Below, one piece after another: positions 5,451 to 64,000 of a stretch of 64,000 nucleotides of DNA. Under the pieces are notes generated by a model, which was not told where the DNA came from, ran no database searches, and saw only the letters and a list, made by a program, of their open reading frames with translations. Where the stretch lies: contig CAZIHW010000117.1 in the NCBI GenBank assembly GCA_964539045.1, positions 17,230-81,229 of the forward strand, given 5' to 3'. The stretch's first letter is position 1. Every line of letters begins with the position of its first letter. A program made the position numbers and the translations under genes. This DNA is from an uncultured Eubacteriales bacterium (GTDB taxonomy: Bacteria; Bacillota; Clostridia; Oscillospirales; Acutalibacteraceae).

Positions 5451-5460
5451 ATATATGCAT

Positions 5461-5487
5461 TTAGCACTCGAACCAAAGGAGTGCTAA
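5461..5487 (+). promoter_or_regulatory. CIRCE operator (HrcA binding site)
   Basis: TTAGCACTC-N9-GAGTGCTAA is an exact match to the CIRCE consensus. It sits immediately upstream of hrcA. Confidence 0.95.
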
Positions 5488-5493
5488 ACAAAA

Positions 5494-6570
5494 ATGCGGG
5501 GTGGTGAGAAAGTGCTTCCGCCAAGACGACAAAAGATTTTGGCTGCTATAGTTGAACAGTATATAGAAACCGGGGAGCCGGTCGGCTCAAAAGCGTTGCT
5601 TTCAAGGCTGACATTCGATGTTTCATCGGCGACTATAAGAAACGAGATGGCAGAGCTTACAAATGAAGGGTTTATTACACAGCCGCATACTTCAGCCGGT
5701 CGTGTCCCGACTCAGTATGGATACAGGTACTATGTAGATAACCTCATGGAAGTAAAGGATTTGTCCGACAACGACAGAAGGCAGATCGAGTCAGGCGTCG
5801 ATTACAGGTCGGGTGATCCGGAACAATTGCTTTCAAAGGCCGGAGAAGCGCTTGTTGATTTCACAAATTTTGCCGCTATTTCAACAACTCCTGCAGATGA
5901 AAATGCCTATATAAAGAATATCGAGATGGTGCAGATAAGTCCGAGGACGGCAATGATTGTCCTCCTGACGTCAACAGGTATTCTCAAGAGTAAGGCCTGC
6001 AGAACAGATGTTGAGATAACAGAAGATTTGCGACTCACTTTTACCGATATAGTAAAGCAGAACTTTTTCGGAAGACCGCTCGCCGATGTCGGCACAGTAA
6101 TGATACAGACTTTGGTTGCGAGCCTTGGGGCAAAGGCTTTGTCCATGTCTCCGCTTTTGGTAACAATAGCAGACCTGGCGGCGGCAGCCTCACAGTCTGA
6201 GATAAGTCTTTCGGGACAGTCAAATTTGCTCGGGTATAAGGAATATGACCAAAACGCCGGTCAATTGCTGGATTTCCTGCACAGATCGGAACCTCTTGGA
6301 ATGCTTGTATCTTCTTCTGATACGGATAAGGACATAGAGGTGCGTATCGGCAGCGAGAACAGGTATAAGGAGCTGGAGAATTCCAGCGTGATAATTTCAA
6401 AGTACAAGATAGGCGAAAATGCCACCGGTGCTATCGGAATTATCGGACCGACCAGAATGAACTATTCCAAAATCATTCCGAGTATCAAATATCTTACCGA
6501 CATAGTCAGCAAACTTTTGTCGGAGGTTTATGAGGAGGAGAATACCGGTGTCGAAAGAGACGAAGAATAA
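5494..6570 (+). CDS. hrcA: Heat-inducible transcription repressor HrcA
   Basis: N-terminus RRQKILAAIVEQYIETGEPVGSKAL. Operon context hrcA-grpE-dnaK-dnaJ. The exact start is uncertain; a GTG at 5512 is also possible. Confidence 0.9.
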   Translation: MRGGEKVLPPRRQKILAAIVEQYIETGEPVGSKALLSRLTFDVSSATIRNEMAELTNEGFITQPHTSAGRVPTQYGYRYYVDNLMEVKDLSDNDRRQIESGVDYRSGDPEQLLSKAGEALVDFTNFAAISTTPADENAYIKNIEMVQISPRTAMIVLLTSTGILKSKACRTDVEITEDLRLTFTDIVKQNFFGRPLADVGTVMIQTLVASLGAKALSMSPLLVTIADLAAAASQSEISLSGQSNLLGYKEYDQNAGQLLDFLHRSEPLGMLVSSSDTDKDIEVRIGSENRYKELENSSVIISKYKIGENATGAIGIIGPTRMNYSKIIPSIKYLTDIVSKLLSEVYEEENTGVERDEE

Positions 6571-7093
6571 ACCGGAAGAAAAGGAAATCACCGGAGCCGA
6601 TATAACAGAGGATCCGAAGGAGACTGAGGAGAGGGAAGAGGTTTCCGAACCTGATGAACTTGAAAAGGTGAGTTCCGAACTTGCGGCTCAGAAGGAAGCA
6701 TATCTTCGACTTGCGGCCGAGTATGATAACTATCGTAAACGTACCGCTAAAGAAAAGGAAGATACTTTTACAAATGCTAAAGCAACCGTGTTTGAAGAAC
6801 TTCTTCCGGTTCTAGATAATTTTGACAGGGCTTTGGCTGCGGGGGACACCTCGCTTGAAGATTTTAAAAAGGGCATAGATATGACATATTCACAGCTCCT
6901 GGGAATTTTTGAAAAGTTCGGAGTTAAGCCGTTTTGTGAAGCCGGTGAGCAGTTCGATCCCAATTTCCATAACGCTGTGATGCATGATGATGACCCATCA
7001 CTTGAAGCAAATGTGATTACCGAAGTATTCCAGAAAGGATACAAAATCGGTGAAAAAGTATTGAGACACGCCATGGTGAAAGTGGCAAACTAG
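6548..7093 (+). CDS. grpE: Nucleotide exchange factor GrpE
   Basis: GrpE core (LRLAAEYDNYRKRTAKE...FDPNFHNAVM). The GTG at 6548 follows AGGAGGAG and is preferred over the track start at 6530. It overlaps the end of hrcA. Confidence 0.9.
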   Translation: MSKETKNKPEEKEITGADITEDPKETEEREEVSEPDELEKVSSELAAQKEAYLRLAAEYDNYRKRTAKEKEDTFTNAKATVFEELLPVLDNFDRALAAGDTSLEDFKKGIDMTYSQLLGIFEKFGVKPFCEAGEQFDPNFHNAVMHDDDPSLEANVITEVFQKGYKIGEKVLRHAMVKVAN

Positions 7094-7141
7094 ATTAACC
7101 TAAACTTTATTTCTTATTTGATCTTAATTGGAGGCATAATT

Positions 7142-8986
7142 ATGGCAAAAATAGTAGGTATTGACCTTGGTACAACAAACTCTTGCGTAGCAGTTATCGA
7201 AGGCGGCGAGCCTGTAGTTATAGCTAATGCTGAAGGTGCGCGTACAACCCCGTCAGTAGTGGCATTCGGCGCCGACGGAGAAAGAATGGTAGGTCAGGTT
7301 GCCAAAAGACAGGCAATCAGAAATCCGGATAAAACAGTTTCATCAATAAAGCGTCAGATGGGTACAGACTACAAAGTTGATATCGACGGCAAAAAGTTCA
7401 CTCCGCAGGAGATTTCAGCTATGATTCTTCAGAAGCTCAAGGCTGATGCAGAGGCTTATCTCGGAGACACAATAACAGAGGCTGTTATCACAGTTCCGGC
7501 TTATTTCACAGATTCACAGCGTCAGGCAACAAAGGATGCAGGTAAGATTGCAGGCTTTGAAGTAAAGAGAATTATCAACGAGCCTACAGCTGCCGCTCTT
7601 GCATACGGTATCGATAAAGAAGCTGATCAAAAAATCATGGTATACGACCTCGGCGGTGGTACATTTGATGTATCCATTATCGAAATGGGCGACGGTGTAC
7701 AAGAGGTTCTGGCAACAGCAGGTAACAATCGCCTCGGCGGTGATGACTTCGACCAGAGAATCATAGATTTTCTCGCAGATGAGTTTAAAAAGGCAGAGGG
7801 TATAGACCTCAAGGGCGATAAGATGGCTATGCAGCGTCTTAAGGAAGCTGCTGAGAAAGCTAAGATTGAACTTTCGGGCGTAACCTCAACAACGGTTTCT
7901 CTTCCGTTTATCACAGCAGATGCTAACGGACCGAAGCACCTTGAAATGACTATAAGCCGTGCTAAGTTCAACGAACTCACTGCAGATCTTGTTGAGAAGA
8001 CAATGGGTCCGGTTAAGCAGGCTATTTCAGACTCAGGTCTTAAGACCTCAGAGATAGATAAGGTTCTCATGGTTGGTGGTTCTTCAAGAATCCCGGCAGT
8101 ACAGGAAGCTGTTCAGAAGTTTATCGGTAAGGAGCCATTCAAGGGAATAAATCCTGATGAATGTGTTGCTATGGGTGCAGCCCTTCAGGGCGGTGTTCTC
8201 GGCGGAGATGTAAAGGGTCTTCTTCTTCTCGATGTTACTCCGTTGTCACTTGGTATTGAAACCCTCGGCGGTGTATGCACAAAGATTATTGAAAGAAATA
8301 CAACTATTCCGACAAAGAAGAGCCAGATTTTCTCAACAGCTGCAGATAATCAGACCTCTGTTGAAGTAAACGTACTTCAGGGAGAGCGCGAATTCGCAAA
8401 AGATAACAAGCAGCTCGGAATGTTCCATCTTGACGGAATTCTTCCTGCACGACGCGGTACACCTCAGATTGAGGTAACATTTGATATAGATGCAAATGGT
8501 ATAGTTCATGTATCTGCAAAAGACCTCGGAACAGGAAAAGAGCAGTCTATATCTATAACTGCTTCTTCAAATATGTCCAAAGATGACATAGATAAGGCAG
8601 TACGTGAGGCAGAGCAGTTTGCTGCTGAAGACAAACAGCGTCGTGAAGATGTTGATACAAGAAATGCCGCAGATCAGATGGTATTCCAGTGCGAAAAGAT
8701 CCTCCAGGAGGAAGGCGACAAGTTTGAGAGCGCTGACAAGGATGATCTTAATGCAAAGATAGACGCACTTAAGGAAGCACTTAAGGGCGAGGATATGAAT
8801 CTCATTAAGAACAGACAGGAAGAATTGCAGGCTAAGTTCTATGAGATATCGGAGAAGCTCTATAAGGCAAATGCTCCTGAGGGCGGTGCTGCAGGCTTTG
8901 ATCCGTCAGCTGCAGGATTTAATCAGGGTGCAGCAGGTGCCGGTGCTGCAGACGCAAATGACGTAGAGTTTACCGACGTTGACTGA
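7142..8986 (+). CDS. dnaK: Molecular chaperone DnaK (Hsp70)
   Basis: [28 protein letters not shown] and other Hsp70 signatures. Confidence 0.97.
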
Positions 8987-43414: not shown

Positions 43415-44899
43415 TTATTGATGGAATAATGCATCTGTTTGATATTTCGGTTCGCAAGTCATGTTTATTCCCAGCTTCTTGAATGTACCGGCATCCACCT
43501 GGGATATGATTACGGATGTATGTGCTTCGCATCCTCTGAGATCCTTAAGATGTTCCATTGCTTTTTGTGCATTCTTGTCACTTGCGGCCGCTATGGAGAG
43601 AGCTATCAGTATCTCATCTGAATGCAACCGCGGGTTTTTGCTTCCGAGTGTCTGAATCTTCAGTTTTTGTATCGGTTCGAAAACCATAGGAGGTATGAGG
43701 TGGATTTCATCCGGTATACAAGCCAGCTCCTTAAGTGCATTTAAAAGCATAGCGGAGGCGGAGCCGAGCAAGTCGGTAGTTCTTCCTGTTACTATTTTTC
43801 CGGAAGGAAGCTCGATTGCCGAAGCAGGAGCATCATATTCCTCATCCTTTTTACAGGCGGCTTCTATTACGGGCCTGTCCGAAATCTTAAGTCCTGCCTG
43901 CTTCATGAGGAAGTCGAGCTTCAGAACTATATCATTGTCTATAGTGCCCTTTTTCTTATCACACAGTGCGGTGTAGTACCTTCTGATTATCTCCTGATTT
44001 GAAGCTTTGATACAAGCCTCATCATCGACTATACAATTTCCCGCCATGTTTACGCCCATGTCAGTCGGAGATTTGTACGGGCATTCTCCGGAGATCTCCT
44101 CAAATATAGCCTTAAGTACCGGGAAAACCTCAACATCACGGTTGTAATTTACTGTTGTTTCTCCATACGCTTCAAGATGAAACGGGTCTATCATATTTAC
44201 GTCGCTGAGATCTGCGGTTGCGGCCTCGTAAGCCAGATTTACCGGATGCTTGAGAGGAATATTCCATATAGGGAAAGTTTCAAATTTTGCATATCCGGAT
44301 TTTATGCCGCGTTTATTGTCATGATAAAGCTGTGAAAGACAAGTTGCCATCTTGCCGCTTCCGGGTCCCGGGGCTGTTATTACAACAAGCCTTCTTGTAG
44401 TTTCTATGTAATCGTTTTTGCCGAATCCCTCATCGCTTACTATGTACGGTATATTTGCAGGATAACCCTCTATTGGGTAGTGCTTGTAAACGTTGATACC
44501 CAAGTTCTTGAGTCTTTTTGAAAAGGCATCCGCTGATGGTTGGTTTGAGTATCTTGTGAGCACGACGCTTCCTACGTATAAACCGAATGCGCTGAAAGCG
44601 TCTATAAGTCTGAGTACATCGAGATCATAAGTTATGCCGAGATCCCCGCGTACCTTGTTTTTTTCAATGTCTCCTGCATTGATGACTACTACGATTTCGG
44701 CTTGGTCTTTGAGCTGCATTAACATCTGAAGCTTACTGTCCGGCTTGAAACCGGGGAGAACCCTTGAGGCATGATAATCATCAAACAACTTGCCTCCGAA
44801 TTCCAGGTAGAGCTTATCGCCGAATTTTTCGATTCTCTTTGCTATATGCTCTGACTGCATTTTCAAATATTTGTCATTGTCAAATCCGATTACGTTCAT
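43415..44899 (-). CDS. UPF0371/DUF1846-like protein
   Basis: 494 aa. N-terminus GFDNDKYLKMQSEHIAKRIEKFGDKLYLEFGGKLFDDYHASRVLPGF. It lies 18 nt downstream of the sortase gene on the same strand. Confidence 0.75.
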   Translation of the reverse strand: MNVIGFDNDKYLKMQSEHIAKRIEKFGDKLYLEFGGKLFDDYHASRVLPGFKPDSKLQMLMQLKDQAEIVVVINAGDIEKNKVRGDLGITYDLDVLRLIDAFSAFGLYVGSVVLTRYSNQPSADAFSKRLKNLGINVYKHYPIEGYPANIPYIVSDEGFGKNDYIETTRRLVVITAPGPGSGKMATCLSQLYHDNKRGIKSGYAKFETFPIWNIPLKHPVNLAYEAATADLSDVNMIDPFHLEAYGETTVNYNRDVEVFPVLKAIFEEISGECPYKSPTDMGVNMAGNCIVDDEACIKASNQEIIRRYYTALCDKKKGTIDNDIVLKLDFLMKQAGLKISDRPVIEAACKKDEEYDAPASAIELPSGKIVTGRTTDLLGSASAMLLNALKELACIPDEIHLIPPMVFEPIQKLKIQTLGSKNPRLHSDEILIALSIAAASDKNAQKAMEHLKDLRGCEAHTSVIISQVDAGTFKKLGINMTCEPKYQTDALFHQ

Positions 44900-44917: not shown

Positions 44918-45652
44918 TTATTTTAATAATTCCGCTACCACTACAAATCTCTCCGTTTTTGTTCTGGAGGTGCAAGTGGACAGTGTAATTACTTTTTCGT
45001 TATTTTCAAAGTCTGTTTTAGGACTTTCAACTTCACTGGAGGCACACACGGTCTTTAACCAATCGGTGTATGCATTATTGTCGCTGAAATTATAAGTATA
45101 TACGTCATCTGTAACTTCAACCGTATACGCTGAAATTATCTTATACTTTGCAACCTTGTCTTCCAGAATAATGTATACATACGGATGCTCATCCAGGTAC
45201 GATTTTTCCTTGTACTTTTTGAGTGAGCCGAACATGGAACCGTTTTTTGTATTGTGGCCGTATATTATTGTGTTGTTGTCAGAAAAGTCTTCTGTGTTTC
45301 TGCTGTCTACGAAAATGCTCCCGAAGTCGCTGTAAATGCGATTGTACGTTCTCTTCAGGTAGTAGTCGTTATTCGATCCGTATAACAGCGGATAGCTAAT
45401 CTTCGTATCAGGTATGTATATCCAACCGATTATATCCTCGTTAATTTCTTTTAAAGATTCAAGGTCAACATCCATGTCGGGGACAGGGTCTTCTGAGTCA
45501 TCATTCTCCGGGGCCTTGAAATACTCTTTGGACGAGTCGTAAATTTTGTCACCCTCATAGTAATCATGCAACATGGTACATAATTTGTAGCAAGAAAAAA
45601 TGAACAAAGCTATAAAAATGATTTCCAAAACAGTGTAGAGTTTTTTCTTCAT
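44918..45652 (-). CDS. srtB: Class B sortase
   Basis: N-terminal TM segment, IIYGHN, and the catalytic TLSTCT...R arrangement typical of SrtB. Confidence 0.85.
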   Translation of the reverse strand: MKKKLYTVLEIIFIALFIFSCYKLCTMLHDYYEGDKIYDSSKEYFKAPENDDSEDPVPDMDVDLESLKEINEDIIGWIYIPDTKISYPLLYGSNNDYYLKRTYNRIYSDFGSIFVDSRNTEDFSDNNTIIYGHNTKNGSMFGSLKKYKEKSYLDEHPYVYIILEDKVAKYKIISAYTVEVTDDVYTYNFSDNNAYTDWLKTVCASSEVESPKTDFENNEKVITLSTCTSRTKTERFVVVAELLK

Positions 45653-45820
45653 AGTGTTATCCTCTGCAGACGTAATGAATAAAATACAAATTTAATTGTA
45701 CCACAAACAAAACGTATCTGCCATCTAAAGATTTTTCACATATTTTATGCTATATCCCTTTATTTTTTTGTACGGAACATTTATAATTATTATACTAATA
45801 CTTACATATGGGGTTTTATT

Positions 45821-47029
45821 ATGAGATCACAAACAGCAAAAACCAATATCATAAGAGTCTTGTGTTTTCTCCTGGTTTTCCCTATGGTTTTTTCATTCCT
45901 TTTCGGTTGTAAGAATAAGGAGGAAGAAGAAAACACAACGGCTTCCGTTGTAACCGGGGACTTGACCTCGGGTGAGAATACGGATGACGGATCCGGCACG
46001 GATGTCTCGAACGAGGAGAGTTCCGGTGAAGACAAGACGTCCGAAGATTCGGGAAACGGTTCTGATGTTACAACAAATAAGGTAAGCGGTACAAAACATT
46101 CATACGGTACGACAAAAAAGCATTCGAGCGGAGGCGGATCAAATAAAAAGCCTTCAACTGCTAAGACTACTGCCGTTAAAACTACAAAGTCAAATTCTTA
46201 TTATGCACCCAGAGTGCTGACGAATTCTGCCCCCGGAAGGGTGACCTATACATCTTCTGACGGGACAGGCGTTATAGATTGTTCGAACAGTTCTCAGGGA
46301 TACATCATGGTCAAGTACAGCGGATCATATTCCAATGTCCGGATTCTTGTTTACCCACCGGGAGTATCTACCGGAGGATCAGGGTATATAAATTATCCTT
46401 TGTTTACAAGAAATACCTATGAAGCTATACCGCTTACCAGCGGAAACGGAACTTACAATATCGGTATCTACGGAAACAGTGACGGTTCGGGAAGCTATTA
46501 TCCCGTAGTAAAGCAAGATGTAAACGTATCTCTCAGCTACTCGACCGTAGCCTATGCAAGGCCTAATATCATAGTGAACTATAACTCGGGTACTTCATGT
46601 GTAAGATATGCTGCAGAACTTACAAGGGGTTGTGACGATGAGTTGTCAAAAATCCAGGCCATCTACAACTACGTCATTAAAAACTTTTCTTATGACTACG
46701 GAAAGGCTTCATCTGTAAGGAATTCAGCATATATACCGAATTTGAACAATGTATGGGCATCTAAAAGCGGAATTTGCTACGACTATGCATCTGTTATGGC
46801 GGCGATGCTGAGAACCCAGGGACTGCCTACCAAGGTGGAGGTGGGATACGTATCCAACGGCGCATATCATGCATGGATAAGTGTGTGGACAAAGAAGTAT
46901 GGCTGGATTAATAACGTTATTCAATTTAACGGCTCAAGCTGGAAACTTCTGGATCCTACGTTTGCTTCCACCGGAGGAGATAAGGATTGGTCCAAGAACT
47001 ATTCGTACAGCGTCAAATATCGCTATTGA
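45821..47029 (+). CDS. Lipoprotein with C-terminal transglutaminase-like (Cys-His-Asp) core
   Basis: Lipobox LFGC, a low-complexity Ser/Thr/Gly linker, and SGICYDYASVMAAMLRTQGLP...GAYHAWISVW...LDPT. Confidence 0.75.
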   Translation: MRSQTAKTNIIRVLCFLLVFPMVFSFLFGCKNKEEEENTTASVVTGDLTSGENTDDGSGTDVSNEESSGEDKTSEDSGNGSDVTTNKVSGTKHSYGTTKKHSSGGGSNKKPSTAKTTAVKTTKSNSYYAPRVLTNSAPGRVTYTSSDGTGVIDCSNSSQGYIMVKYSGSYSNVRILVYPPGVSTGGSGYINYPLFTRNTYEAIPLTSGNGTYNIGIYGNSDGSGSYYPVVKQDVNVSLSYSTVAYARPNIIVNYNSGTSCVRYAAELTRGCDDELSKIQAIYNYVIKNFSYDYGKASSVRNSAYIPNLNNVWASKSGICYDYASVMAAMLRTQGLPTKVEVGYVSNGAYHAWISVWTKKYGWINNVIQFNGSSWKLLDPTFASTGGDKDWSKNYSYSVKYRY

Positions 47030-47067
47030 TAAATTGCTAATACACAAAATACACGGAGGAATAATTT

Positions 47068-48111
47068 ATGAGCATTACACAACTTGACGGACCTTATTTG
47101 TCTTCATTCTGTATGGAGATGGCATTGTGCCTTAAAGCCGGTATTTCATTAAACGAAGGATTGTTTATGCTTGCGTCTGATGAAACCGATAAAAGCCTGA
47201 AAGAGATGCTTGACGGGCTATATAATAAAATGGATGCGGGATCTTCGCTTGAAGATGCTATGAAAGAAGCGGGATGCTTCCCGAAATACGTTGTAGACAT
47301 GGTTGAGATAGGTACGAAAACCGGAAGACTTGAGGACGTTCTTCGTGCACTTTCCGCATATTATACTCGCCAGGAACAGATAACAAGAAGTATAAAAAAT
47401 GCAGTTGTATATCCTTTCGTACTTATGTTTATGCTTCTACTCGTTATAGGAGTTCTTATAATAAAGGTACTTCCTATTTTCAATGAGGTATTTAACGAAC
47501 TCGGTGCGGAGATGTCATCTGTCGCCGTTACCATCATGAACATAGGAACCGGCGTGACAAAGTATGCGGCCGTTATAATAGGAGTAGTTGTACTTCTTGT
47601 GGTTATAGCCGTAGTTATAAGTACAATTCCTTCTCTTACTTTAAAGTTTGTGACCGCTTGGAATAAGTTTACCTCTAACAGGAAAATAAGCAAGAAGATA
47701 GCTTCCGCCAGATTTGCATCCGGTATGGCAATGACACTTGCAAGTGGTCTTGATACAGATGAATCCCTCGACATGGTTGAGAGAATTACTGAAAATCCTG
47801 CTATGCTCGCAAGGATAAAAAAGTGTCGTGAACTTATGAAGTCAGGGGAGTTGTTTGTCGACGCAATTGCAAAGTCCGAGATTTTCCCGTCACTTTACTG
47901 CAGAATGTTATCTATCGGTTTTAAGACCGGTACGGCAGATACCGTAATGGAAGAGATAGCATCGAGAAGCGAAGATGATGTAAATGAAGATATAGAATCG
48001 GTTATCAACAAGGTTGAGCCTACTCTTGTTATTATCATGTCGTTGATAGTAGGACTTATCCTTCTTTCCGTAATGCTTCCTCTTATGAGTATTATGACGA
48101 GTATAGGTTAA
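47068..48111 (+). CDS. GspF/PilC/ComGB-family platform protein (two T2SS-F repeats, 3 TM)
   Basis: Duplicated T2SSF-like modules (AGISLNEGLFMLA...FPKYVVDMVEIGTKTGRLEDVL and SGLDTDESLDMV...FPSLYCRMLSIGFKTGTADTVM). Confidence 0.85.
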   Translation: MSITQLDGPYLSSFCMEMALCLKAGISLNEGLFMLASDETDKSLKEMLDGLYNKMDAGSSLEDAMKEAGCFPKYVVDMVEIGTKTGRLEDVLRALSAYYTRQEQITRSIKNAVVYPFVLMFMLLLVIGVLIIKVLPIFNEVFNELGAEMSSVAVTIMNIGTGVTKYAAVIIGVVVLLVVIAVVISTIPSLTLKFVTAWNKFTSNRKISKKIASARFASGMAMTLASGLDTDESLDMVERITENPAMLARIKKCRELMKSGELFVDAIAKSEIFPSLYCRMLSIGFKTGTADTVMEEIASRSEDDVNEDIESVINKVEPTLVIIMSLIVGLILLSVMLPLMSIMTSIG

Positions 48112-48127
48112 AGAAGGGCGTGTTTTT

Positions 48128-48514
48128 ATGAAAACAAAAGTAAGAAAGCGCTCTGCTTTTGAAGTACTCAGCGGACACCTGCTTTCTATAGTTTTCTTCG
48201 TGGTTATCTTCGGAATGTTCCTCGGCGGCGTTGCAAATGCCGAAGCCGGAAGTCAGGCCGAAAGCAAGAAGGTGCTGGAAGAAAGTATAAAGAAGGCTGT
48301 GGTAAGCTGCTATGCTTTAGAGGGCGCATATCCCGAAAGTATCGAATATTTGGAGAAAAACTATGGACTTACCTATGATAAGGATAAGTATTCCATAGGA
48401 TATATCGCTTTTGCGTCTAATATATTGCCTGATATAACGGTGATAGAGTTAAATGCCGAAGTACCGGAAGATACAACGGAAGAGGTGTCGGGGGACGCTG
48501 TGATTATTGAATGA
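48128..48514 (+). CDS. Small N-terminally anchored protein P1, pseudopilin-like
   Basis: Basic leader KRS then AFEVLSGHLLSIVFFVVIF. The periplasmic part contains AVVSCYALEGAYPESIEYL, which resembles the GspG/ComGC motif (..Y....G.YP..L..L). Confidence 0.45.
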   Translation: MKTKVRKRSAFEVLSGHLLSIVFFVVIFGMFLGGVANAEAGSQAESKKVLEESIKKAVVSCYALEGAYPESIEYLEKNYGLTYDKDKYSIGYIAFASNILPDITVIELNAEVPEDTTEEVSGDAVIIE

Positions 48515-48530
48515 AAGGGGACAGGCACTT

Positions 48531-49019
48531 ATGAAAAAGAGAACCTCATATACGGTTGACACTATATTTGTGCTCGTTCTCTTTGCTGTGTTTGCTGTAA
48601 CCGTTTTATTTGTTCTCATGTCGGGAGCGGGCGTATATAAAAATACGCAATCGGTTATGCAACAAAGATATGAGGAACGTACTTGCGTTTCTTATATAAC
48701 TTCTAAGATTAACCATCATGATGAGTCCGGAGCTATAGCGGTTACGGACTTTGGTGGATTCTCGGCTCTTGAGCTTGAGGAGAAAATAGCTGATAAATCC
48801 TTTGTTACATATATCTATTGTCATGACGGATATGTAAAGGAACTTATGTTTGAGAAGGGCCTGGAATTTGATCCGGCTTCAGGTATGAACATAATAGAGG
48901 CACAATACCTTAATTTCACTCAGGACGGCAATCTTGTGACGATAAAGTGTATAGGTGAGGACGGAACGGTTTCATCGGTTACGCTTAATATAGCCGGCGG
49001 TTTGGAGGCGATTGAGTAA
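48531..49019 (+). CDS. Small N-terminally anchored protein P2 (from memory DUF4860-like; unverified)
   Basis: MKKRTS then YTVDTIFVLVLFAVFAVTVLFVL. The ATG at 48531 follows AAAGGGGA; the track start at 48507 overlaps P1. Confidence 0.45.
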   Translation: MKKRTSYTVDTIFVLVLFAVFAVTVLFVLMSGAGVYKNTQSVMQQRYEERTCVSYITSKINHHDESGAIAVTDFGGFSALELEEKIADKSFVTYIYCHDGYVKELMFEKGLEFDPASGMNIIEAQYLNFTQDGNLVTIKCIGEDGTVSSVTLNIAGGLEAIE

Positions 49020-49468
49020 TGGGAAAGAATATTAAAACTCGTTCAAAGTCGTCTTTATTCCTTATGGAACTCATAGTAGTTCTTATGTTTTTCTCACTCT
49101 GTGCTGCCATATGTATGAAAGTATTTGCGGTCTCAAAGGTAAAGACAGACTATGCAAATGATTTGTCGCAAGCCTCTTTTGCTGTCGAGACTGCCGCAGA
49201 AGTGTATAAGGAGAAAAAGGGCGATGTAAAATCCGTTGCAGAGTTCTTCGGCGGAGCAAAAACTGAGGATTCCACAGTAACGGTATACTATGATAAGGAA
49301 TGGAATATAGTATCTTCAGCACAAGGGTCGGAATATGAAATGACTCTTGTATCGGATTCAACCGGATTTCTGAATGAGGCTGTTATTACAGTTACAGAGA
49401 CCGGGAAGGATGAGAGTATTTTCGACATAGCTACAGCTGTTGTCGGTGATATAAAGGAGGGTGTCTGA
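49019..49468 (+). CDS. Small N-terminally anchored protein P3, prepilin-like N-terminus with Glu+5
   Basis: MGKNIKTRSKSS then LFLMELIVVLMFF. Compare G|FTLIELLVV: Glu sits at +5 if cleavage follows the Ser. The start overlaps the P2 stop (TAATG). Confidence 0.5.
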   Translation: MGKNIKTRSKSSLFLMELIVVLMFFSLCAAICMKVFAVSKVKTDYANDLSQASFAVETAAEVYKEKKGDVKSVAEFFGGAKTEDSTVTVYYDKEWNIVSSAQGSEYEMTLVSDSTGFLNEAVITVTETGKDESIFDIATAVVGDIKEGV

Positions 49469-49469
49469 T

Positions 49470-49937
49470 ATGGATAAGCATATAGAGCAGAACACCAGGC
49501 AATCCTCCGGAATAAATATAGGCAGTGCATCCATAATAATGGTCTTCTCCGTTCTTTGTCTTACCGTATTTGCTGTTTTGACATTTGTTACAGCAAATAA
49601 CGAGTATAAGCTTTCCGTAAAATCCGCTGATAGCATAAAAGCTTACTATGTTACGGATACGAAAGCTACGGAGAGACAAGCAAAGATAGCGGAAATAGTA
49701 TCACAAAATGCAAGCTTTGGATATATCACTAATGAGGTTGCGAAACTTGATGTAAAGACAGAGTCGAGAGACGGTGCATTGTTTTTAAGCTATTCTGAAA
49801 AGTCCGATGACGCTCAGGAACTGCGGGTTATTTTGAAATTTGACGGAACCGAGCTTACAGTTGATACATGGAAACTTGTAAGTACAGCAGAATGGAATGC
49901 AGATGGCGGTCCTGAACTTTGGGATGGTGAATTTTGA
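49470..49937 (+). CDS. Small N-terminally anchored protein P4
   Basis: Leader ...NTRQSS then GINIGSASIIMVFSVLCLTVFAVLTF. The ATG at 49470 follows AAGGAGGG. The stop overlaps the pilT-like start. Confidence 0.45.
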   Translation: MDKHIEQNTRQSSGINIGSASIIMVFSVLCLTVFAVLTFVTANNEYKLSVKSADSIKAYYVTDTKATERQAKIAEIVSQNASFGYITNEVAKLDVKTESRDGALFLSYSEKSDDAQELRVILKFDGTELTVDTWKLVSTAEWNADGGPELWDGEF

Positions 49938-51007
49938 TGACTTTACTTGATTTGCTGAGAGGTGCTGTTGACAAGCAGGCTTCTGATATATTTGTCCTTG
50001 CGAGTCTCCCACTCTCATATAAACTAAATGGAGTTATAGTTCCTCAGGAGGAGGAAAAAGTAACTCCCCAGACTTCGAGAGCTCTTATAGAAGAGATATA
50101 TGAAACGGCCGGCAGACCTATGGAAAGGCTTATAAAGACCGGAGATGATGACTTCTCTCTTGCTATAAGCGGTTTGTCGAGGTTCAGGGTAAGCACTTAC
50201 AAGCAGAGAGGTTCATTGGCTGCGGTTATAAGGCTTGTATCATTCGATATACCTAACTACAAAGAACTTTCAATACCCGAAAGTGTTATGTCGGTTGCCG
50301 ACAAGACAAAGGGTCTTGTTTTAGTTACAGGTCCTGCCGGAGGTGGTAAGTCCACTACGTTGGCCTGCATAATTGACAGAATCAACAGTACCAGAAACGG
50401 ACATATTATCACTTTGGAAGAACCACTCGAATATCTTCACAGAAATAAGAAAAGCGTAATCTCCCAGAGAGAGATAGAGACCGATACGGAAAATTACGTT
50501 ACGGCACTCCGTGCTTGTCTTCGTCAGTCACCGGATGTTATTTTGGTGGGTGAAATGCGAGATTATGAGACGATTAAGACTGCCATGACAGCGGCTGAGA
50601 CGGGACACCTTGTTATCTCGACTTTGCACACTGTCGGAGCGGCCAATACTATAGACCGTGTTATTGATGTGTTCCCTCCCAATCAGCAACAGCAGATTCG
50701 TGTCCAGTTGGCACAGCTTTTGCAATGCGTTATTTCGCAGCAGCTTATACCTACTGTTGACGGGTCACTGGTTCCGGCCTTTGAGGTTATGAATCTTAAC
50801 AGTGCTATAAGAAACATGATTCGTGAGTCTAAGGTACATCAAATAGATTCCATAATAGGAACCTCTGCTGCAGAGGGAATGGTATCTATGGATACCAATA
50901 TTTATGATCTCTATGAAAAGGGTATAATCAGTGAGACCAATGCATTGAAGTTTGCTTCAAATGCGGACTTGCTGCGTAAAAAGATTGATCTGAACAGAAG
51001 AAAATGA
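49937..51007 (+). CDS. pilT: PilT-type (retraction-class) type IV filament ATPase
   Basis: Walker A GPAGGGKSTT, Asp/His boxes and the PilT-specific motif AIRNMIRE (consensus AIRNLIRE). It aligns end to end by eye with PilT and is about 357 aa. Confidence 0.88.
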   Translation: MTLLDLLRGAVDKQASDIFVLASLPLSYKLNGVIVPQEEEKVTPQTSRALIEEIYETAGRPMERLIKTGDDDFSLAISGLSRFRVSTYKQRGSLAAVIRLVSFDIPNYKELSIPESVMSVADKTKGLVLVTGPAGGGKSTTLACIIDRINSTRNGHIITLEEPLEYLHRNKKSVISQREIETDTENYVTALRACLRQSPDVILVGEMRDYETIKTAMTAAETGHLVISTLHTVGAANTIDRVIDVFPPNQQQQIRVQLAQLLQCVISQQLIPTVDGSLVPAFEVMNLNSAIRNMIRESKVHQIDSIIGTSAAEGMVSMDTNIYDLYEKGIISETNALKFASNADLLRKKIDLNRRK

Positions 51008-52941
51008 TATTAAGTGTTTCAAAATTGACAAAAAGTTTCGGAGATAGAGTCCTCTTCAGAGAGGGCTCATTCTCTGTTGAAAAAGGTGACATAGTAGGTC
51101 TTGTCGGCGCGAACGGTGTCGGCAAGACCACTTTATTCAATATAATTACAGGTAAAGATACACCCGATAGCGGAGCAGCTCTGTTGTCTTCCGGGACCAA
51201 GGTCGGATATCTTGAACAGCATGTGTGCGCAGAATCAAAGAAGACCTGTTATGAGGAGACTCTGAGTGTTTTCTCTCATCTTTTTGAAATAGAGGAAGAG
51301 CAAAAACAAATATCTGAAAAGCTTATCAAGGGAACAGATGATAAGTTGATTTTAAGACAAAATGAGCTGATAGAGGAATACGAGAATCTGGGCGGGCTTA
51401 CATATGTGTCTTTGACTCATTCCGTGCTGCTTGGTCTGGGCTTTTCGGAAGAGGAACAGAATATGCCTGTTTCAGATTTGTCCGGGGGACAAAAATCCAA
51501 GATAGGACTGGCGAAGCTCCTTTTACAGAAGCCGGATATCATGTTGCTTGATGAGCCTACGAACCACCTTGATATAGAATCTGTTTCGTGGCTTGAAAAG
51601 TTTATATCAAGCAGTAATGCCACTATTATCGTTATATCGCATGATAGATATTTTCTCGACAAGATATGCAACGGAATTGTTGAGATATATGCCGGAAAAA
51701 TGTTCTATACAAAGGGAAACTATACAAGGCATATGCAACTCAAAGAGGAACGCGATTATGCCCTGACCAGACACTATGAAAATACAATGTCACAGGTCAA
51801 CCGTTTAGAAGGTATTATTGAGCAGCAGAAAAGATGGAACAGGGAGAAGAATATTAAAACAGCCGAGTCAAAGCAAAAACAAATAGATCGTCTTTTGGAA
51901 GGATTGGAAGCTCCCGAAAAGGAGAAAAACGAGTTCTTCTTTAACTTCACCCCGCATACGGAGAGCGGGGAGGATGTCCTCAGTGTGGACAATTTAAGGA
52001 TGGAATTTCCGGAAAAAGTTTTATATGAAAATGTGTCATTTGAACTCAAACGCGGCGAAACAGCCTGCATATTAGGTGAAAACGGTATAGGAAAAACTAC
52101 CCTCATAAAGCAGATAATGCGAAAAGGGCGAGGAGTAAAATTCGGTGTGGGTGTACAGATTGGTTACTTCGATCAGCACCAGCTCAATTTGACGCTTTCA
52201 AATACTGTTTTAGATGAGATCCACAACGCATTTCCCCGTCTTACCGATACAGAAGTCCGCTCTGCCCTGGCGGTATTCGGCTTCAAGGGCGAAAAGGTAT
52301 TTGATACCTTAAATATTCTCAGCGGTGGGGAGCGGGCAAAGGTTTCTCTGTGCAAGCTGATGCTTAAGCGATGTAATCTCCTTATTCTTGATGAGCCCAC
52401 AAACCATTTGGATATATATTCACTTGATGCATTGGAAAATGCTCTGATGAACTATACCGGAACACTTCTGATAATTTCACATGACAGGTACTTTATAAAT
52501 CGTGTTTCAAGCAAGATAATAGAGCTTAAACCAACCGGAAGCCGTACTTTTATCGGGAACTATGAAAGTTACTCGTTGATAGTTTTGGAGGAGCAAACCG
52601 AAACTTCGCCGGGACTTTCCGAGAAGTCGGGAGATGCTAAAAAAATCGGAGAGGGCGGAAAGACATATCTTGACAAGAAGCAGAGGCGTTCTGAGTTTAC
52701 AAAGCTTAAAACCGCGCTCAGGAAAAATGAGGAATTAATACTCAAACTGGAGCAGCAAATAGAAAGCTTGAAGGCCGAAATGGCTGATGAGAGTATAAGT
52801 TCAGACTATGAGAGGATATCTGAACTGTCTGAAAGCCTGGCCGGTGCAGATTCAGAACTTGAAGATGCATTGTCGGAGTGGGAAACCCTTTCGGAAAAGA
52901 TATCTGAATATGAGAAATCAGAAGAGGATAATTTGTCATAG
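51004..52941 (+). CDS. ABC-F family ATPase (two NBDs, no TMD, acidic coiled-coil C-terminal extension)
   Basis: Two Walker A motifs (GANGVGKTT, GENGIGKTT) and two signature motifs (LSGGQKSK, LSGGERAK). The ATGA overlaps the pilT-like stop. Confidence 0.88.
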   Translation: MILSVSKLTKSFGDRVLFREGSFSVEKGDIVGLVGANGVGKTTLFNIITGKDTPDSGAALLSSGTKVGYLEQHVCAESKKTCYEETLSVFSHLFEIEEEQKQISEKLIKGTDDKLILRQNELIEEYENLGGLTYVSLTHSVLLGLGFSEEEQNMPVSDLSGGQKSKIGLAKLLLQKPDIMLLDEPTNHLDIESVSWLEKFISSSNATIIVISHDRYFLDKICNGIVEIYAGKMFYTKGNYTRHMQLKEERDYALTRHYENTMSQVNRLEGIIEQQKRWNREKNIKTAESKQKQIDRLLEGLEAPEKEKNEFFFNFTPHTESGEDVLSVDNLRMEFPEKVLYENVSFELKRGETACILGENGIGKTTLIKQIMRKGRGVKFGVGVQIGYFDQHQLNLTLSNTVLDEIHNAFPRLTDTEVRSALAVFGFKGEKVFDTLNILSGGERAKVSLCKLMLKRCNLLILDEPTNHLDIYSLDALENALMNYTGTLLIISHDRYFINRVSSKIIELKPTGSRTFIGNYESYSLIVLEEQTETSPGLSEKSGDAKKIGEGGKTYLDKKQRRSEFTKLKTALRKNEELILKLEQQIESLKAEMADESISSDYERISELSESLAGADSELEDALSEWETLSEKISEYEKSEEDNLS

Positions 52942-52957
52942 ACAAATTATCCTCTTT
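52924..52957 (+). terminator. Strong intrinsic terminator ending the 45.8-52.9 kb operon
   Basis: Perfect 14-bp stem GAGGATAATTTGTC-ATA-GACAAATTATCCTC followed by TTTCC. The ABC-F stop codon sits in the loop. Confidence 0.75.
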
Positions 52958-53012: not shown

Positions 53013-53834
53013 TTACTTAGGACCGAGCTCCCTTATGGAGAAAATCGCAAGTCTGTAATCACTTCTATAGTCCGGATATTTTGATATGTTAATCTCAAAG
53101 GTCCGGGATGATACATCTTTGAAAACAAACAGAAGTTGTTTTTTGCCGGAATCAAGCTGGTCTTTTATGTATTCATAGTTATAGTATTTGGCAAAATCTT
53201 TTTTGAAGTCAGCATCAATATAGTTATTGTTCAGGTGTTCCATCATGGCTCTATGATCACTGAACATATTTGCGTATACATCAAATTCATCCTGATACCG
53301 TGATAAGACGAGTCTGCTCATGGAACTGTTAAGGTCAACTATATAAACAAGAATATAATTATCTATCAGTTGCTGTAAAACGATGTCATTAAATTGTCTG
53401 TTTCTGTTTTCTTCACGTTCTTTGACTTCACCGTCGGCTGTCCTTATACCATAAATAAATAAAGCATGACCGCTTTCATTTTTTATCGGAGATAAGCTCA
53501 AATTGTACCAATGATATTTATCGTCAATTTTTTTTAATAACAGCATTTCCAGTTCCAATGTTTGATCATCCTGATATGCCCTCTTCAAATTCTCTTCGTT
53601 TATTTCATCTATGAATCGCTGATGAAATAAGGGATGAACAAAGGCTTCGGAAAGCTCTGCTATCTCTCCGAGCGTAATAGTCTTTTTACACTCAGATTCA
53701 GGTCTTGTATTGTCGTAAATAACCACGCACTCACCGGATGTTACGTCTAAAATAGACAGGAATGCATATGTTTTCTCAAAGAATGACGTTAAAATTGAAA
53801 GGATATCTTTTTCAGAAAAGTTACCGTATTCCAT
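53013..53834 (-). CDS. Hypothetical cytoplasmic protein with two related sensor-like (PAS/GAF-like?) halves and no output domain
   Basis: 273 aa. Internal repeat pattern FFEKTYAFLSILDVTSGECVVIY versus LIDNYILVYIVDLNSSMSRLVLSRY. It has its own RBS AAGGAGG and an extended -10 TGGTATAAT (53884-53876). By eye it looks more AT-rich than its neighbours. Confidence 0.5.
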   Translation of the reverse strand: MEYGNFSEKDILSILTSFFEKTYAFLSILDVTSGECVVIYDNTRPESECKKTITLGEIAELSEAFVHPLFHQRFIDEINEENLKRAYQDDQTLELEMLLLKKIDDKYHWYNLSLSPIKNESGHALFIYGIRTADGEVKEREENRNRQFNDIVLQQLIDNYILVYIVDLNSSMSRLVLSRYQDEFDVYANMFSDHRAMMEHLNNNYIDADFKKDFAKYYNYEYIKDQLDSGKKQLLFVFKDVSSRTFEINISKYPDYRSDYRLAIFSIRELGPK

Positions 53835-54755: not shown

Positions 54756-54832
54756 TGGAGCTGGAGATGGGACTCGAACCCACGAACCTATTGATTACGA
54801 ATCAATTGCGCTACCAACTGTGCCACTCCAGC
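54756..54832 (-). tRNA. tRNA-Thr (anticodon CGU)
   Basis: The reverse strand reads GCTGGAG-TG-GCAC-AGTTGGTA-GCGC-A-ATTGA-TTCGTAA-TCAAT-AGGTTC-GTGGG-TTCGAGT-CCCAT-CTCCAGC-T-CCA. This folds as a cloverleaf by hand, with one A-C mismatch in the D stem and a 6-nt variable loop. CCA is encoded. Confidence 0.85.
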
Positions 54833-57127: not shown

Positions 57128-57352
57128 GTGTCTTGATAGAGGCGCGGGTTCCAATAGTAGTGCATCACAACCTGAACAAAGGGTGATATGCGAAAGGGGA
57201 ATTCGCCGAAGCTTCAAGTGAATTGTTCTTTACTTGTTGCTGGGCCGCTGTAAAATATGCAACGGACTGTCACTTTGTTAAGTGGAGAGCTGTCATTACT
57301 TTGAAACCCTTTTTGGGGTAGTTAAGGTCGTGATAGTGTCACGACCTTTTTT
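57128..57352 (+). promoter_or_regulatory. Lysine riboswitch (L-box) with intrinsic terminator
   Basis: Conserved blocks AGAGGCGC, GGGGAATTCGCCGAAG, GGACTGTCAC and GTGGAGAGCTGTCA, followed by the hairpin AAGGTCGTGA-TAGTG-TCACGACCTT plus a T-run, 30 nt before the NhaC-family gene. Confidence 0.8.
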
Positions 57353-61924: not shown

Positions 61925-62605
61925 ATGAAAAAAATATTCGGTTTAATTTTCGCTGATGATATGGAGTTTAAACCCTTTTCGGAATATGCATATGAAAACG
62001 GGGGAGAGCTTGTTGCAAAGACCCCGCAGAATGTTATTCGAATGGAAAAAGACGATAGCCTGATATATGGCATAGAGGGTGGAGTAGGAAAGGTGAACTG
62101 CGCTGTGGCAGCACTGGAGCTGATCCGTACATATCACGTAGATAAAATTATGAGTGCCGGACTTTCCGGTGCTGTTTCGGGCCTGGTCAAGGGGGATATA
62201 GTTGCCGGGGATTCTTATGTGGAATGTGACTTTGATATGACAGCTTTAAATTATCCGCTTGGAAAAAAGCCCGACGGAAGTTATATATACTATGCTCCTA
62301 AAGATATGTTAGATGTGGCTTTAAAAATAGACGGCATGAAGAGCGGGCGTGTTGGAACCGGCGATTTCTTTCTTACCGATTCCGAAAAGAAAGCTTTGTA
62401 CAAGGCGGAGTTCTCAGTGAATGCCTTTGATATGGAATCGGCTGCAATTGCAGCTGTTTGCGACAAGTATAAGATCCCTTTCATGTCCATCAGAAAAATA
62501 TCCGATGACGCCGATGACGCTGCGACTGAATCCTACAGAGAAATAAATAATCTCTGTGAGAGGAACCTCACAGAGACTTTAATGGAAGTAATTGAGCTGC
62601 TATAA
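61925..62605 (+). CDS. mtnN: 5'-methylthioadenosine/S-adenosylhomocysteine nucleosidase
   Basis: PNP_UDP_1 fold motifs (GGVGKVNCA, FDMESAAIAAVC, SIRKISD). Confidence 0.8.
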   Translation: MKKIFGLIFADDMEFKPFSEYAYENGGELVAKTPQNVIRMEKDDSLIYGIEGGVGKVNCAVAALELIRTYHVDKIMSAGLSGAVSGLVKGDIVAGDSYVECDFDMTALNYPLGKKPDGSYIYYAPKDMLDVALKIDGMKSGRVGTGDFFLTDSEKKALYKAEFSVNAFDMESAAIAAVCDKYKIPFMSIRKISDDADDAATESYREINNLCERNLTETLMEVIELL

Positions 62606-64000
62606 CTGTAATATCGTCAGTTGAACTGTCTTTTTCAAATGCATTTGTAGCGATCCGCTTTGCCAGATTTTCCATGCTGCTTCCACGGTAGTATGAGAGC
62701 TGTTTTGCAATTTGCAATTCATCTCCTATCCAGATTCCGTCGCTTGACATGAGAACGATATCGTACTCCGACAGGGTAGCACTTGCGTGCGAGAACTCTA
62801 CATTGCCCAGGATACCGATCGGCAATGCAACTCTATCAAGTTTTACAACCTTTTCCCCGTGTCGTACTAAAGTGGCGGCGGCGCCTGCTTTATAAAAATC
62901 TGCTTTACCGGTGCTTAAGTCAATGCATGCCATATCTATTGTGGACAGTGTTTCATCACCTGAATTTGCCAGTATCGCGGAATTCGTTATGTTTATAGCG
63001 CTTTCAAAGTCTATTCCTTCTTTGAGAAGGCTTGAGAGTATCTCTACCGACATTGTACTCCCGATAGCTGCGGCTGAGCCTGTTCCCATACCGTCGCTGA
63101 GCATTATAACAAATTTATCATTTGATGTTTTGAAGGTTGTAAAATAATCTCCGCTCCTATGATTGCACTTTGCTGACAATTGATGTGCGCCCAGGTTTAC
63201 TTCGTATAATTCCCCATATTCATCGGGGGACACTGTGTTATTCATAGCCTCGGCTTCCAGTATGTCGGACAAATTAAGGATCAGATTGCCGGTATCGGAA
63301 ATCTGCTTTGACACTACATTTCTCATTTGTGCTGCAGATATGTCTTCCGGAAACATGTCTGTGGTTTTTTCGGAAACACGATCCAGCAAATCAGATACCT
63401 TGCCTATGGTTGTCCCTATAGAGCTCAGCTTATTCCTTATCATGGTTTCGTAGTTGTAATTGCTATCTTCCTTTGGGAAAATTATTTCGTTTATATTTTT
63501 TGTAATTGAAGTGGGCAGGCCGAGGTATATTATTGCCGCAACAATATATGAAACCAATACTTTTGGACTTTCCGCCCCGAGGGTTACGATAACGGCGGCC
63601 AATACTCCGAATGCGCAATTGTAATATTTTTTATCGGGGTTGCATATGATTAAAAATATGTAGCAACAGCATACCAGTGAGAGGTTAATATACCATATTT
63701 CCAACCGGGAGAGTGCCAGCAGAACAAGTGTCAGCGATACTATTATCGAGGTCTTGTCTTTATTCTGAAAAGCATTACAAAAAAAGTAGGCGGCACCTGC
63801 AGACAATACTGCCTCAAAGATGTAGATCAGTACATCAGTCAATACGAAGTGTGTAGATATAACTACAGTTAATGCAGTGACTATGCAGGAAATTCCCGTT
63901 AAAGCAGACACAAAAATGGGACTGTAAGTGTTTTTCTTGTCCTTTAAAGCCCCGCGTATGACCAGTATTGTAAAAAGTGTAGCTACATACCTCAGCGGTA
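62568..64000 (-). CDS. spoIIE: Stage II sporulation protein E (PP2C phosphatase), C-terminal part; the ORF stays open to the window end
   Basis: Multiple TM segments followed by a PP2C domain (SGDYFTTF...LSDGMGTGSAAA...SSDGIW...DDITVIA). My own translation shows the frame remains open upstream of the GTG at 63911 through to 64000. Confidence 0.85.
   Translation of the reverse strand, partial: PLRYVATLFTILVIRGALKDKKNTYSPIFVSALTGISCIVTALTVVISTHFVLTDVLIYIFEAVLSAGAAYFFCNAFQNKDKTSIIVSLTLVLLALSRLEIWYINLSLVCCCYIFLIICNPDKKYYNCAFGVLAAVIVTLGAESPKVLVSYIVAAIIYLGLPTSITKNINEIIFPKEDSNYNYETMIRNKLSSIGTTIGKVSDLLDRVSEKTTDMFPEDISAAQMRNVVSKQISDTGNLILNLSDILEAEAMNNTVSPDEYGELYEVNLGAHQLSAKCNHRSGDYFTTFKTSNDKFVIMLSDGMGTGSAAAIGSTMSVEILSSLLKEGIDFESAINITNSAILANSGDETLSTIDMACIDLSTGKADFYKAGAAATLVRHGEKVVKLDRVALPIGILGNVEFSHASATLSEYDIVLMSSDGIWIGDELQIAKQLSYYRGSSMENLAKRIATNAFEKDSSTDDITVIAAQLLPLKSL

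Follow-up and report, generated by a model that had tools for sequence, protein, structure and literature searches.

A conserved seven-gene cassette of Clostridia with a PilT-family ATPase, its own platform and four small pilin-like or pilin-compatible membrane proteins

A 64,000-nt stretch of DNA from an uncultured Eubacteriales bacterium of the Acutalibacteraceae (contig CAZIHW010000117.1; hereafter the window, whose numbering is used throughout) carries a compact cassette of seven genes that encode, in order, a transglutaminase-fold enzyme (TG), a platform protein, four small membrane proteins (P1 to P4) and a PilT-family ATPase. We propose, with a probability of about 0.5, that this cassette specifies an autonomous minimal type IV filament-like machine of single-membrane Clostridia, with the PilT-clade ATPase serving as cognate motor for the cassette's own platform. 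The proposal is made because the seven genes are strictly co-conserved in two orders of Clostridia and include a private platform, because no other motor ever lies adjacent and PilT is under strong purifying selection, and because the layout (platform, smallest subunit, larger subunits) is comG-like and CpaF provides a precedent for a single motor. The cassette is apparently undescribed, and widespread in gut and digester Clostridia.

Conservation of the cassette across Clostridia

Relatives were collected from genomes and metagenomes. A genome scan seeded with DUF4860, the family of P2, gave 21 species-level loci, whose hosts are metagenome-assembled genomes (MAGs) of Acutalibacteraceae, Oscillospiraceae and Ruminococcaceae plus one 'Peptococcaceae' MAG. 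Metagenomes were scanned with the motif CYA[LI]EG[ARS]YP of P1, which matched at least 600 stretches; 80 loci were kept from these. The statistics below refer to 108 non-redundant loci from Oscillospirales, Lachnospirales (including the cultured Hungatella hathewayi) and metagenomes, with denominators that vary per feature; the numbers L001-L116 denote relatives and flanks of the window.

The order platform-P1-P2-P3-P4-PilT was found in all 21 genome loci, with TG directly 5' wherever it was detected; TG is missing upstream in L020, although the contig reaches that far. The same cassette occurs in seven further contigs found via distant DUF4860 or P1 homologues, namely L028 (a 'Bacillota' MAG), L029, L030, L031 (H. 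hathewayi), L034 and the Lachnospiraceae-type contigs L032 and L033, and the order is likewise invariant in 37 loci, each 6 kb or longer, from metagenomes. The platform gene lies directly 5' of P1 in 73 of 73 loci. On the 3' side, P1 is followed by P2 in 44 of 44 loci, by P3 in 42 of 44, and by P4 and PilT in 43 of 44 each, while TG lies within 3.8 kb 5' of P1 in 53 of 58 loci (50 on the same strand). Recurrence of this gene order in 108 loci is far beyond chance. A first-pass annotation of the window, made from the sequence alone, had staked its reading on conservation of the order in relatives, and that expectation was borne out.

The genes that flank the cassette vary between lineages, and the cassette therefore behaves as one unit. 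Its carriers are Clostridia of gut, rumen and digesters together with cultured H. hathewayi. The DUF4860 family itself is large and diverse, its profile having retrieved 3,348 representatives (clusters at 50% identity) at E ≤ 1e-3 among 1.84 billion proteins. All eight same-strand open reading frames that had been annotated in the window are present at their given coordinates (Table 1), of which the seven-gene unit TG-platform-P1-P2-P3-P4-PilT is the conserved part and the eighth gene, encoding an ABC-F ATPase, lies outside it. The family calls made initially (transglutaminase, GspF-type platform, PilT and ABC-F) all hold in Pfam and NCBIfam profile searches.

Motor, platform, small proteins and wall enzymes

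On profile scores and motifs, the cassette ATPase is assigned as a genuine PilT. It scores 415 bits with the PilT/PilU model TIGR01420 (cut-off 319) and matches PF00437 at E 9e-44, and its scores with the other models are ComGA 135 bits (NF041000, cut-off 300), PilB 116 (cut-off 676), GspE 126 (cut-off 630) and TadA/CpaF 37 (TIGR03819, cut-off 373), so that the PilT score is three times the ComGA score. Similarly, its best matches in the PDB are PilT of Aquifex (321 bits), Geobacter, Pseudomonas and Thermus, with PilB, GspE and PilF at about 90 bits. The protein has Walker A, Asp box, Walker B, His box and the PilT signature AIRNxIRE (here AIRNMIRE), motifs that are invariant in close relatives and slightly variable in distant ones, and no tetracysteine motif. 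It is also the most conserved protein of the cassette, and identities of 82-93% over the 19 closest genome loci (L001-L019) and of 55-69% in distant loci point to strong purifying selection.

Neither the window, nor about 10 kb of further flank taken from overlapping contigs of the same sample (L115 and L116), nor any of the 108 loci contains a second T2SSE ATPase, and no second platform was found in the window or in any of the 108 loci. The first-pass count of one platform and a single hexameric-ATPase homologue at the locus is thus upheld, with the homologue placed in the PilT family. As the cassette is never seen with another motor beside it, we propose the PilT-clade ATPase as its cognate, and possibly only, motor.

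The platform contains two copies of the T2SSF domain (PF00482, E 7e-47). It falls below all the NCBIfam equivalog cut-offs, with 190 bits for GspF (cut-off 424), 153 for PilC (cut-off 700) and 126 for ComGB (NF041012, cut-off 240); the ComGB model aligns with it from end to end (5-331 of 332). Since every equivalog cut-off is missed, the platform is placed, on these scores, on a separate branch of the T2SSF family.

Each of the four small proteins has a short basic N-terminus and then one hydrophobic helix, from which an N-in/C-out topology is predicted. Judged by its N-terminus, P3 is the one clear pilin-like protein among them. It carries the sequence RSKS[S/G/T]/LFLMEL(I/L)IV, in which the slash after the bracket marks the predicted cleavage site (RSKSS/LFLMELIVV in the window). 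The glutamate at +5 (Glu+5) is present in 91 of 91 sequences, and the residue at -1 is small in 86 of the same 91 (S 35, G 32, T 14, A 5, other 5), with D, R, P, Q or Y in some. A profile of 14 P3 proteins matched the N-terminus of the Geobacter PilA prepilin in the PDB at E 8e-4, with -1, +1 and Glu+5 aligned. Family matches of P3 are weak only, with ComGF at E 0.06 and GspI at E 0.05 (2 of 14 members each), and the protein reaches no Pfam or NCBIfam pilin model. These were also the best scores with pilus-system families among P1-P4, none of which has a significant PilM/N/O or ComG match, in keeping with the initial reading; P1, P2 and P4 gave nothing with the ComGC-GG models, and no cassette protein matched a PilM/N/O family even at E ≤ 1. 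A small residue at -1 in 95% of sequences argues that P3 may be cleaved by a prepilin peptidase encoded elsewhere. The initial statement that the cassette has no pilin with a G/FTLxE leader was too strong, as P3 has a degenerate [S/G/T]/LFLME leader.

P2 is a DUF4860 protein (PF16152, E 7e-27; 93.7 bits against a gathering cut-off of 25) with a conserved Asp where the membrane helix starts. Its AlphaFold2 model (mean predicted local distance difference test score, pLDDT, 79) shows a helix over residues 5-62 (58 residues) and then an eight-stranded sheet, which gives the 'lollipop' outline of pilins. The Foldseek match with the highest template modelling (TM) score, at rank 15 by E-value, was a Thermus type IV-like pilin, with a probability of 0.69 and a TM score of 0.33 that are not significant. 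P1 belongs to no Pfam or NCBIfam family; it has 71 homologue clusters. Its ectodomain (CYALEGAYP...FASNxMPDITV) is strongly conserved and its N-terminal anchor is variable. Its model (pLDDT 81) consists of a helix over residues 18-65, a second over 72-79 and a beta hairpin, and three of its six best-ranked Foldseek matches are type IV pilins (5vxx, 4d40 and 6xxd), again not significant (TM 0.33-0.54, E about 1-3). P1 might serve as a minimal pilin-like subunit or, alternatively, as an assembly factor. Neither the P1 nor the P2 model had a Foldseek match in the PDB at E ≤ 1e-3.

P4 has the N-terminal motif SSG/INIGSASIIMVF, conserved as ...G/(I/V)N(I/V)G(S/T)(A/S)S(I/L)(I/V)(M/L)(V/I)F, with Gly at -1 in 24 of 38 distinct N-termini and no acidic residue at +5, and it matched no family in profile searches. 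No meaningful match emerged when profiles of P1, P2 and P4 were run against the PDB. Nor is P3 significantly related to P1, P2 or P4 in profile-profile comparisons (probabilities 2-16%), which leaves four unlinked families. P1, P2 and P4 are pilin-shaped or pilin-compatible, and none of P1-P4 falls in a described pilin family. Single conserved cysteines occur inside the membrane helices of P3 (Cys32, AAIC) and P4 (Cys30, VLCLT; absent in Hungatella) and in the ectodomain of P1 (Cys61, CYALEG), positions that are unusual for pilins.

TG matches the transglutaminase core (PF01841, E 9e-23) and PF04473 (E 2e-8). In the window its lipoprotein signal, with an LFGC lipobox, is followed by a linker rich in Ser, Thr and Gly, a middle domain and, at the C-terminus, the catalytic core. 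All nine loci inspected retain the catalytic Cys (GICxDYA), His (YHAW) and Asp (LxDPT), and the N-terminus is always of lipoprotein or secretory type. Because both the triad and the export-type N-terminus are retained throughout, TG is predicted to be active outside the cytoplasm as an enzyme with the transglutaminase/cysteine-peptidase fold. The lipoprotein annotation given to TG applies to the window, and the enzyme is extracytoplasmic everywhere, but it is not a lipoprotein in every relative, the N-terminus being signal-peptide-like in Hungatella. In L030 (5910-8583) two tandem TG paralogues, of 394 and 485 aa, lie 5' of the platform gene.

A sortase, which the first-pass annotation had not included, is a frequent neighbour: of the 28 loci that have wide flanks, 14 contain one within 7 kb of the cassette. 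The window copy scores 207 bits with TIGR03064 (cut-off 154), and all four typed copies are of class B. At least three independent arrangements occur: divergent and upstream (window and L001-L019); same strand and directly 3' of PilT (L028:5446-6216, L030:12394-13221 and L093 at about 12762); and same strand and upstream (L029:6332-7201), where the sortase is of another, unclassified, class. No C-terminal sorting signal was found on cassette proteins or conserved neighbours; one unrelated match lies at the edge of L003. The recurrence of a sortase in the same neighbourhood suggests a link to wall-anchored material.

Relation to known systems and competing readings

The 'generic' type IV filament definition of Denise et al. 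(2019) comprises an ATPase, an inner-membrane platform and a major pilin. The cassette has a T2SSE/PilT-type hexameric ATPase and a platform with two T2SSF domains, and as a candidate for the pilin it has P3, with its Glu+5 leader and its match to the Geobacter prepilin, though without a pilin-model match. By this loose definition (ATPase, platform, pilin), its gene families would place it in the type IV filament superfamily. The defining features that were tested for type IVa pili (PilB and PilMNO), Com, type II secretion and Tad are missing at the loci. PilB/GspE/ComGA, PilM/N/O and secretin were found neither in the window nor in its flank nor in related loci, and the window and L001-L031 contain no G.GD.K motif of a prepilin peptidase. 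PilD was detected in none of the 108 loci or the window by tblastn, a weak test made with an approximate Pseudomonas aeruginosa PilD sequence as the query. Prepilin peptidases are often encoded away from the pilus locus. A six-frame search of the window and loci found no canonical prepilin leader, a canonical major-pilin N-terminus is absent from all cassette proteins, and there was no match to Flp, TadB/C or SpoIIIA families. PADLOC assigned the cassette to no defence system and gave generic P-loop matches only, for PilT and ABC-F. The initial claim that the set lacks everything else of type IV pili, the type II secretion system (T2SS), Com and Tad therefore stands for PilB/GspE/ComGA, PilD, PilMNO and secretin at the locus only, and was too strong for the pilin, given P3.

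The closest likeness in layout is to ComG. Both have a single-membrane host, a compact operon with a platform of ComGB size, a single ATPase about 355 aa long, and a platform gene followed by small pilin-like genes, the smallest first, with no peptidase gene in the operon and no PilMNO. However, the cassette ATPase belongs to the PilT family rather than being ComGA, and its gene comes last instead of first. There are four small proteins, not five, and none reaches the ComGC-GG models; the cut-offs for ComGA and ComGB are missed as well. As had been noted at the outset, the gene order differs from comGA-GG. In addition, the cassette is opened by TG and often has a sortase beside it. With type IVa pili (Tfpa), such as those of Streptococcus sanguinis, Clostridium perfringens and C. 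difficile, it shares a PilT-family ATPase, a PilC-type platform and, in P3, the pilin-like Glu+5. PilM/N/O and PilT are hallmarks of Tfpa, whose biogenesis machinery further comprises an extension ATPase and a prepilin peptidase (PMC6916266); the cassette loci have PilT but lack the PilB/PilF extension ATPase, PilM/N/O, PilD and a canonical major pilin. The likeness to Tad/Flp is that one ATPase would serve the whole machine, as does the bifunctional CpaF (PMC11300603; PMC6668835), whereas the cassette ATPase is not of the TadA/CpaF type, one two-domain platform stands in place of TadB plus TadC, and there is no Flp-type pilin and no TadV. Finally, four consecutive pilin-like genes of unequal size recall the GspH-I-J-K tip of T2SS and the core minor pilins of type IVa pili (T4aP). 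P4 resembles GspK in having no acidic residue at +5, and 2 of 14 P3 proteins weakly match GspI. The cassette nevertheless lacks GspE, GspG-K, GspL/M, GspC and secretin, and shows no significant sequence or fold similarity to the tip set. Searchable reviews and the superfamily survey contain no description of this architecture, in agreement with the first impression that it is not a described system. The searchable literature likewise contains no mention of DUF4860, and nothing on PilT together with sortase and transglutaminase, on Hungatella pili or on PilT as a sole ATPase.

If the cassette does specify an autonomous machine, its parts might work together as follows. The polytopic platform in the membrane would dock the PilT-family hexamer on its cytoplasmic face, and ATP-driven movement of the platform would lift the N-in/C-out pilin-like proteins from the bilayer or return them to it. 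These proteins would form a short pseudopilus-like fibre, with P3 (invariant Glu+5) and P2 (conserved Asp) as putative core subunits, P4 (no acidic residue) as a candidate cap and P1 as a small repeating subunit or an assembly factor. TG would lie on the outer side of the membrane, either tethered there or secreted, and its triad would most plausibly cut or re-link wall peptides so that the fibre could pass the thick wall; alternatively, it might process or cross-link the fibre itself. A sortase would often be recruited to the neighbourhood, and the PilT-clade ATPase would be the cognate, possibly the only, motor. Tentatively, and at somewhat less than even odds, we extend this to a new autonomous class of filament in which a PilT-clade ATPase builds, and perhaps retracts, a short wall-spanning pseudopilus of four non-canonical pilin-like proteins, with a dedicated TG that opens or re-links the wall and a sortase that is often coupled to the system. 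Such a class would be the first without a PilB-type assembly motor.

Several observations weigh against an autonomous machine. The only experimentally known role of PilT-family ATPases is that of retraction motors; P1 lacks a conserved leader; and P1, P2 and P4 have no significant pilin match by sequence or, for P1 and P2, by fold. One locus, L108, lacks PilT: its order (4686-8807) is platform-P1-P2-P3-P4-TG, no ATPase lies within about 4 kb on either side, and its flanks contain transporter genes only. A few loci have no TG upstream. Furthermore, to judge from the small -1 residue in 95% of P3 sequences, the genomes that carry the cassette probably have at least one other type IV filament system that could lend parts, and PilB or a major pilin might act in trans, the searches having covered the loci only.

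Some of these points lead to a different account, in which the cassette is an accessory module of a conventional pilus that supplies four minor-pilin-like proteins, a second platform and a retraction ATPase, while PilB/ComGA, the peptidase and the major pilin lie at another locus. We regard this as possible though rather unlikely. PilT is a retraction ATPase in all the systems in which it has been studied (PMC6668835, PMC6916266), four pilin-like genes in a row recall the quartet of core minor pilins in T4aP and T2SS, the P3 leader is compatible with a peptidase in most lineages yet the peptidase is absent from the locus, and a canonical major-pilin N-terminus is missing from the cassette. However, the cassette has its own platform, which in known systems accompanies the extension ATPase, and PilB, PilD, PilMNO or a canonical pilin is never adjacent in 108 loci of two orders. 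The seven genes move together among flanking genes that are unrelated, the -1 residue of P3 is D, R, P, Q or Y in some sequences, and TG is co-conserved, a partner that no conventional pilus is known to have. More improbable is a membrane complex that forms no filament, in which the platform, PilT and four bitopic proteins would act with TG and sortase on the cell envelope, possibly in wall remodelling, in the extraction or insertion of anchored proteins, or as a sporulation-associated SpoIIIA-like channel. The lack of significant pilin matches for P1, P2 and P4 fits such a complex, as do the two types of wall-active enzyme linked to the cassette, the CtpB-like S41 peptidase and sigma-70-like gene directly 5' in Lachnospiraceae loci and the SpoIIE encoded by the host. 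Against it stand the invariant Glu+5 of P3 and the Asp of P2, at the position that pilins use for filament packing, the lollipop-shaped models of P1 and P2, the absence of SpoIIIA family matches and the absence of a sortase substrate signal on any cassette protein.

The ABC-F protein raises a separate question, namely whether the system has eight genes, with ABC-F as a functional partner coupled to PilT. The ATGA overlap of the two genes in the window and the one terminator 3' of ABC-F speak for this. The ABC-F product matches NF000355 (459 bits, cut-off 380) as an ordinary member of the ribosome-associated ABC-F family, and the gene lies 3' of PilT in the window, L001-L003 and L036 only, being absent after PilT in all other loci. 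A presence limited to the window and four close relatives makes the ABC-F gene a lineage-specific passenger. An eight-gene system is refuted for the family at large by this restriction to five closely related loci, which makes such a system very improbable, and ABC-F was rejected as a component.

An autonomous machine of this kind would matter in several ways. In current schemes a PilB-type ATPase is indispensable as the motor of assembly, and PilT is an optional addition for retraction (PMC6668835). Tad CpaF is the precedent for a single motor for both extension and retraction (PMC11300603; discussed in PMC6668835). A PilT-only machine with a platform and pilin-like subunits would bear on whether such motors are intrinsically bidirectional. 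It would also bear on how fibres cross the thick wall of single-membrane bacteria, for which the co-conserved candidate wall enzymes provide a concrete lead. Moreover, DUF4860 and three small-protein families that no database contains would gain their first functional context from the cassette, whose presence in H. hathewayi, which is cultured, makes it open to experiment.

Layout of the locus and neighbouring features

Table 1. Positions in the 64,000-nt window of the cassette genes and associated features
Feature	Position	Strand	Description
Class B sortase	44918-45652	-	divergent from cassette; recurrent neighbour, not proven component
Promoter-like element	45758-45787	+	read from sequence
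TG	45821-47029	+	transglutaminase-fold enzyme
Platform, GspF/PilC/ComGB type	47068-48111	+	polytopic inner-membrane protein, 347 aa
P1	48128-48514	+	small bitopic protein
P2	48531-49019	+	DUF4860 protein
P3	49019-49468	+	type IV pilin-like, degenerate class III leader
P4	49470-49937	+	bitopic, pilin-like, candidate cap subunit
PilT-family hexameric ATPase	49937-51007	+	sole T2SSE-type ATPase of cassette
ABC-F translation-factor-type ATPase	51004-52941	+	overlaps PilT stop codon
16-bp hairpin	52922-52956	none	between convergent genes

The junctions between the genes are short. The gaps of 38 nt (TG/platform) and 16 nt (platform/P1), and the overlaps TAATG (P2/P3), TGATG (P4/PilT) and ATGA (PilT/ABC-F), are as first annotated. 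An 8-nt overlap of P3 and P4 was not sustained, as it requires a GTG start at 49461; gene callers choose the ATG at 49470, behind AAGGAGG, which leaves a 1-nt spacer. The P1/P2 junction, which had been passed over, is a gap of 16 nt in which the P2 ATG at 48531 is preceded by the ribosome-binding site AAGGGGA. The block CTTTATTTTT...TATAAT lies 5' of TG in the window and in 14 relatives (within the range L001-L018), and it is kept between species despite diverged surrounding intergenic sequence. CTTTATTTTT stands at the -35 position, and a perfect TATAAT (45782-45787) follows TTTATT after a 17-nt spacer. When a sporulation-sigma promoter was considered, by eye, the element looked like one of the sigma-A type with an unusual T-rich -35 region. 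Given the conserved promoter-like block 5' of TG and genes that overlap or nearly touch, the layout points to a single transcript. No riboswitch or other known RNA was found 5' of the operon. At the 3' end, the 16-bp hairpin AAGAGGATAATTTGTC-ata-GACAAATTATCCTCTT is likely a bidirectional terminator; the 'single strong terminator' annotated at 52924 is a real hairpin, with a T-tract on the + strand that is no more than moderate.

Regulators of the SARP/BTAD type flank the cassette in several lineages. A protein of about 395 aa whose N-terminal part is of SARP/BTAD type lies beside it in L028 (6230-7429, -), L030 (4417-5613, -) and L034 (10910-12097, +), with tblastn matches in L043, L045, L059, L082, L093 and L110. 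Its C-terminus is faintly diguanylate cyclase-like (E 1e-3 to 1e-4), and it is a possible dedicated regulator. In L032 (1729-2565) and L033 (2438-3313) a gene for a sigma-70-like protein overlaps the TG start by 14 nt, with a gene for a CtpB-like S41 peptidase 5' of it; the sigma-70-like protein matches RpoD only to about position 266 of 370 and apparently lacks region 4.

In the window, a gene for a 273-aa protein without a Pfam family (53013-53834, -) is convergent with the operon, and most of L001-L015, as well as L036-L038, have a homologue of 36-45% identity at the same position 3' of the cassette. On the other side, a DUF1846 protein of 494 aa (43415-44899, -), 73-86% identical in relatives, adjoins the sortase in Oscillospirales loci, an arrangement that probably reflects no more than lineage synteny. 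At the end of the window, a SpoIIE homologue (62568-63911, -), continuing in L115 (610-2238), suggests that the host forms spores. The window also contains an S-adenosylmethionine riboswitch (249-347, -), a flavin mononucleotide riboswitch (1126-1240, -) 5' of a gene for an energy-coupling-factor-type transporter with five transmembrane segments, a lysine riboswitch (57129-57300, +) 5' of a gene for a transporter with 14 such segments, and a tRNA-Thr(CGT) gene (54756-54832, -).

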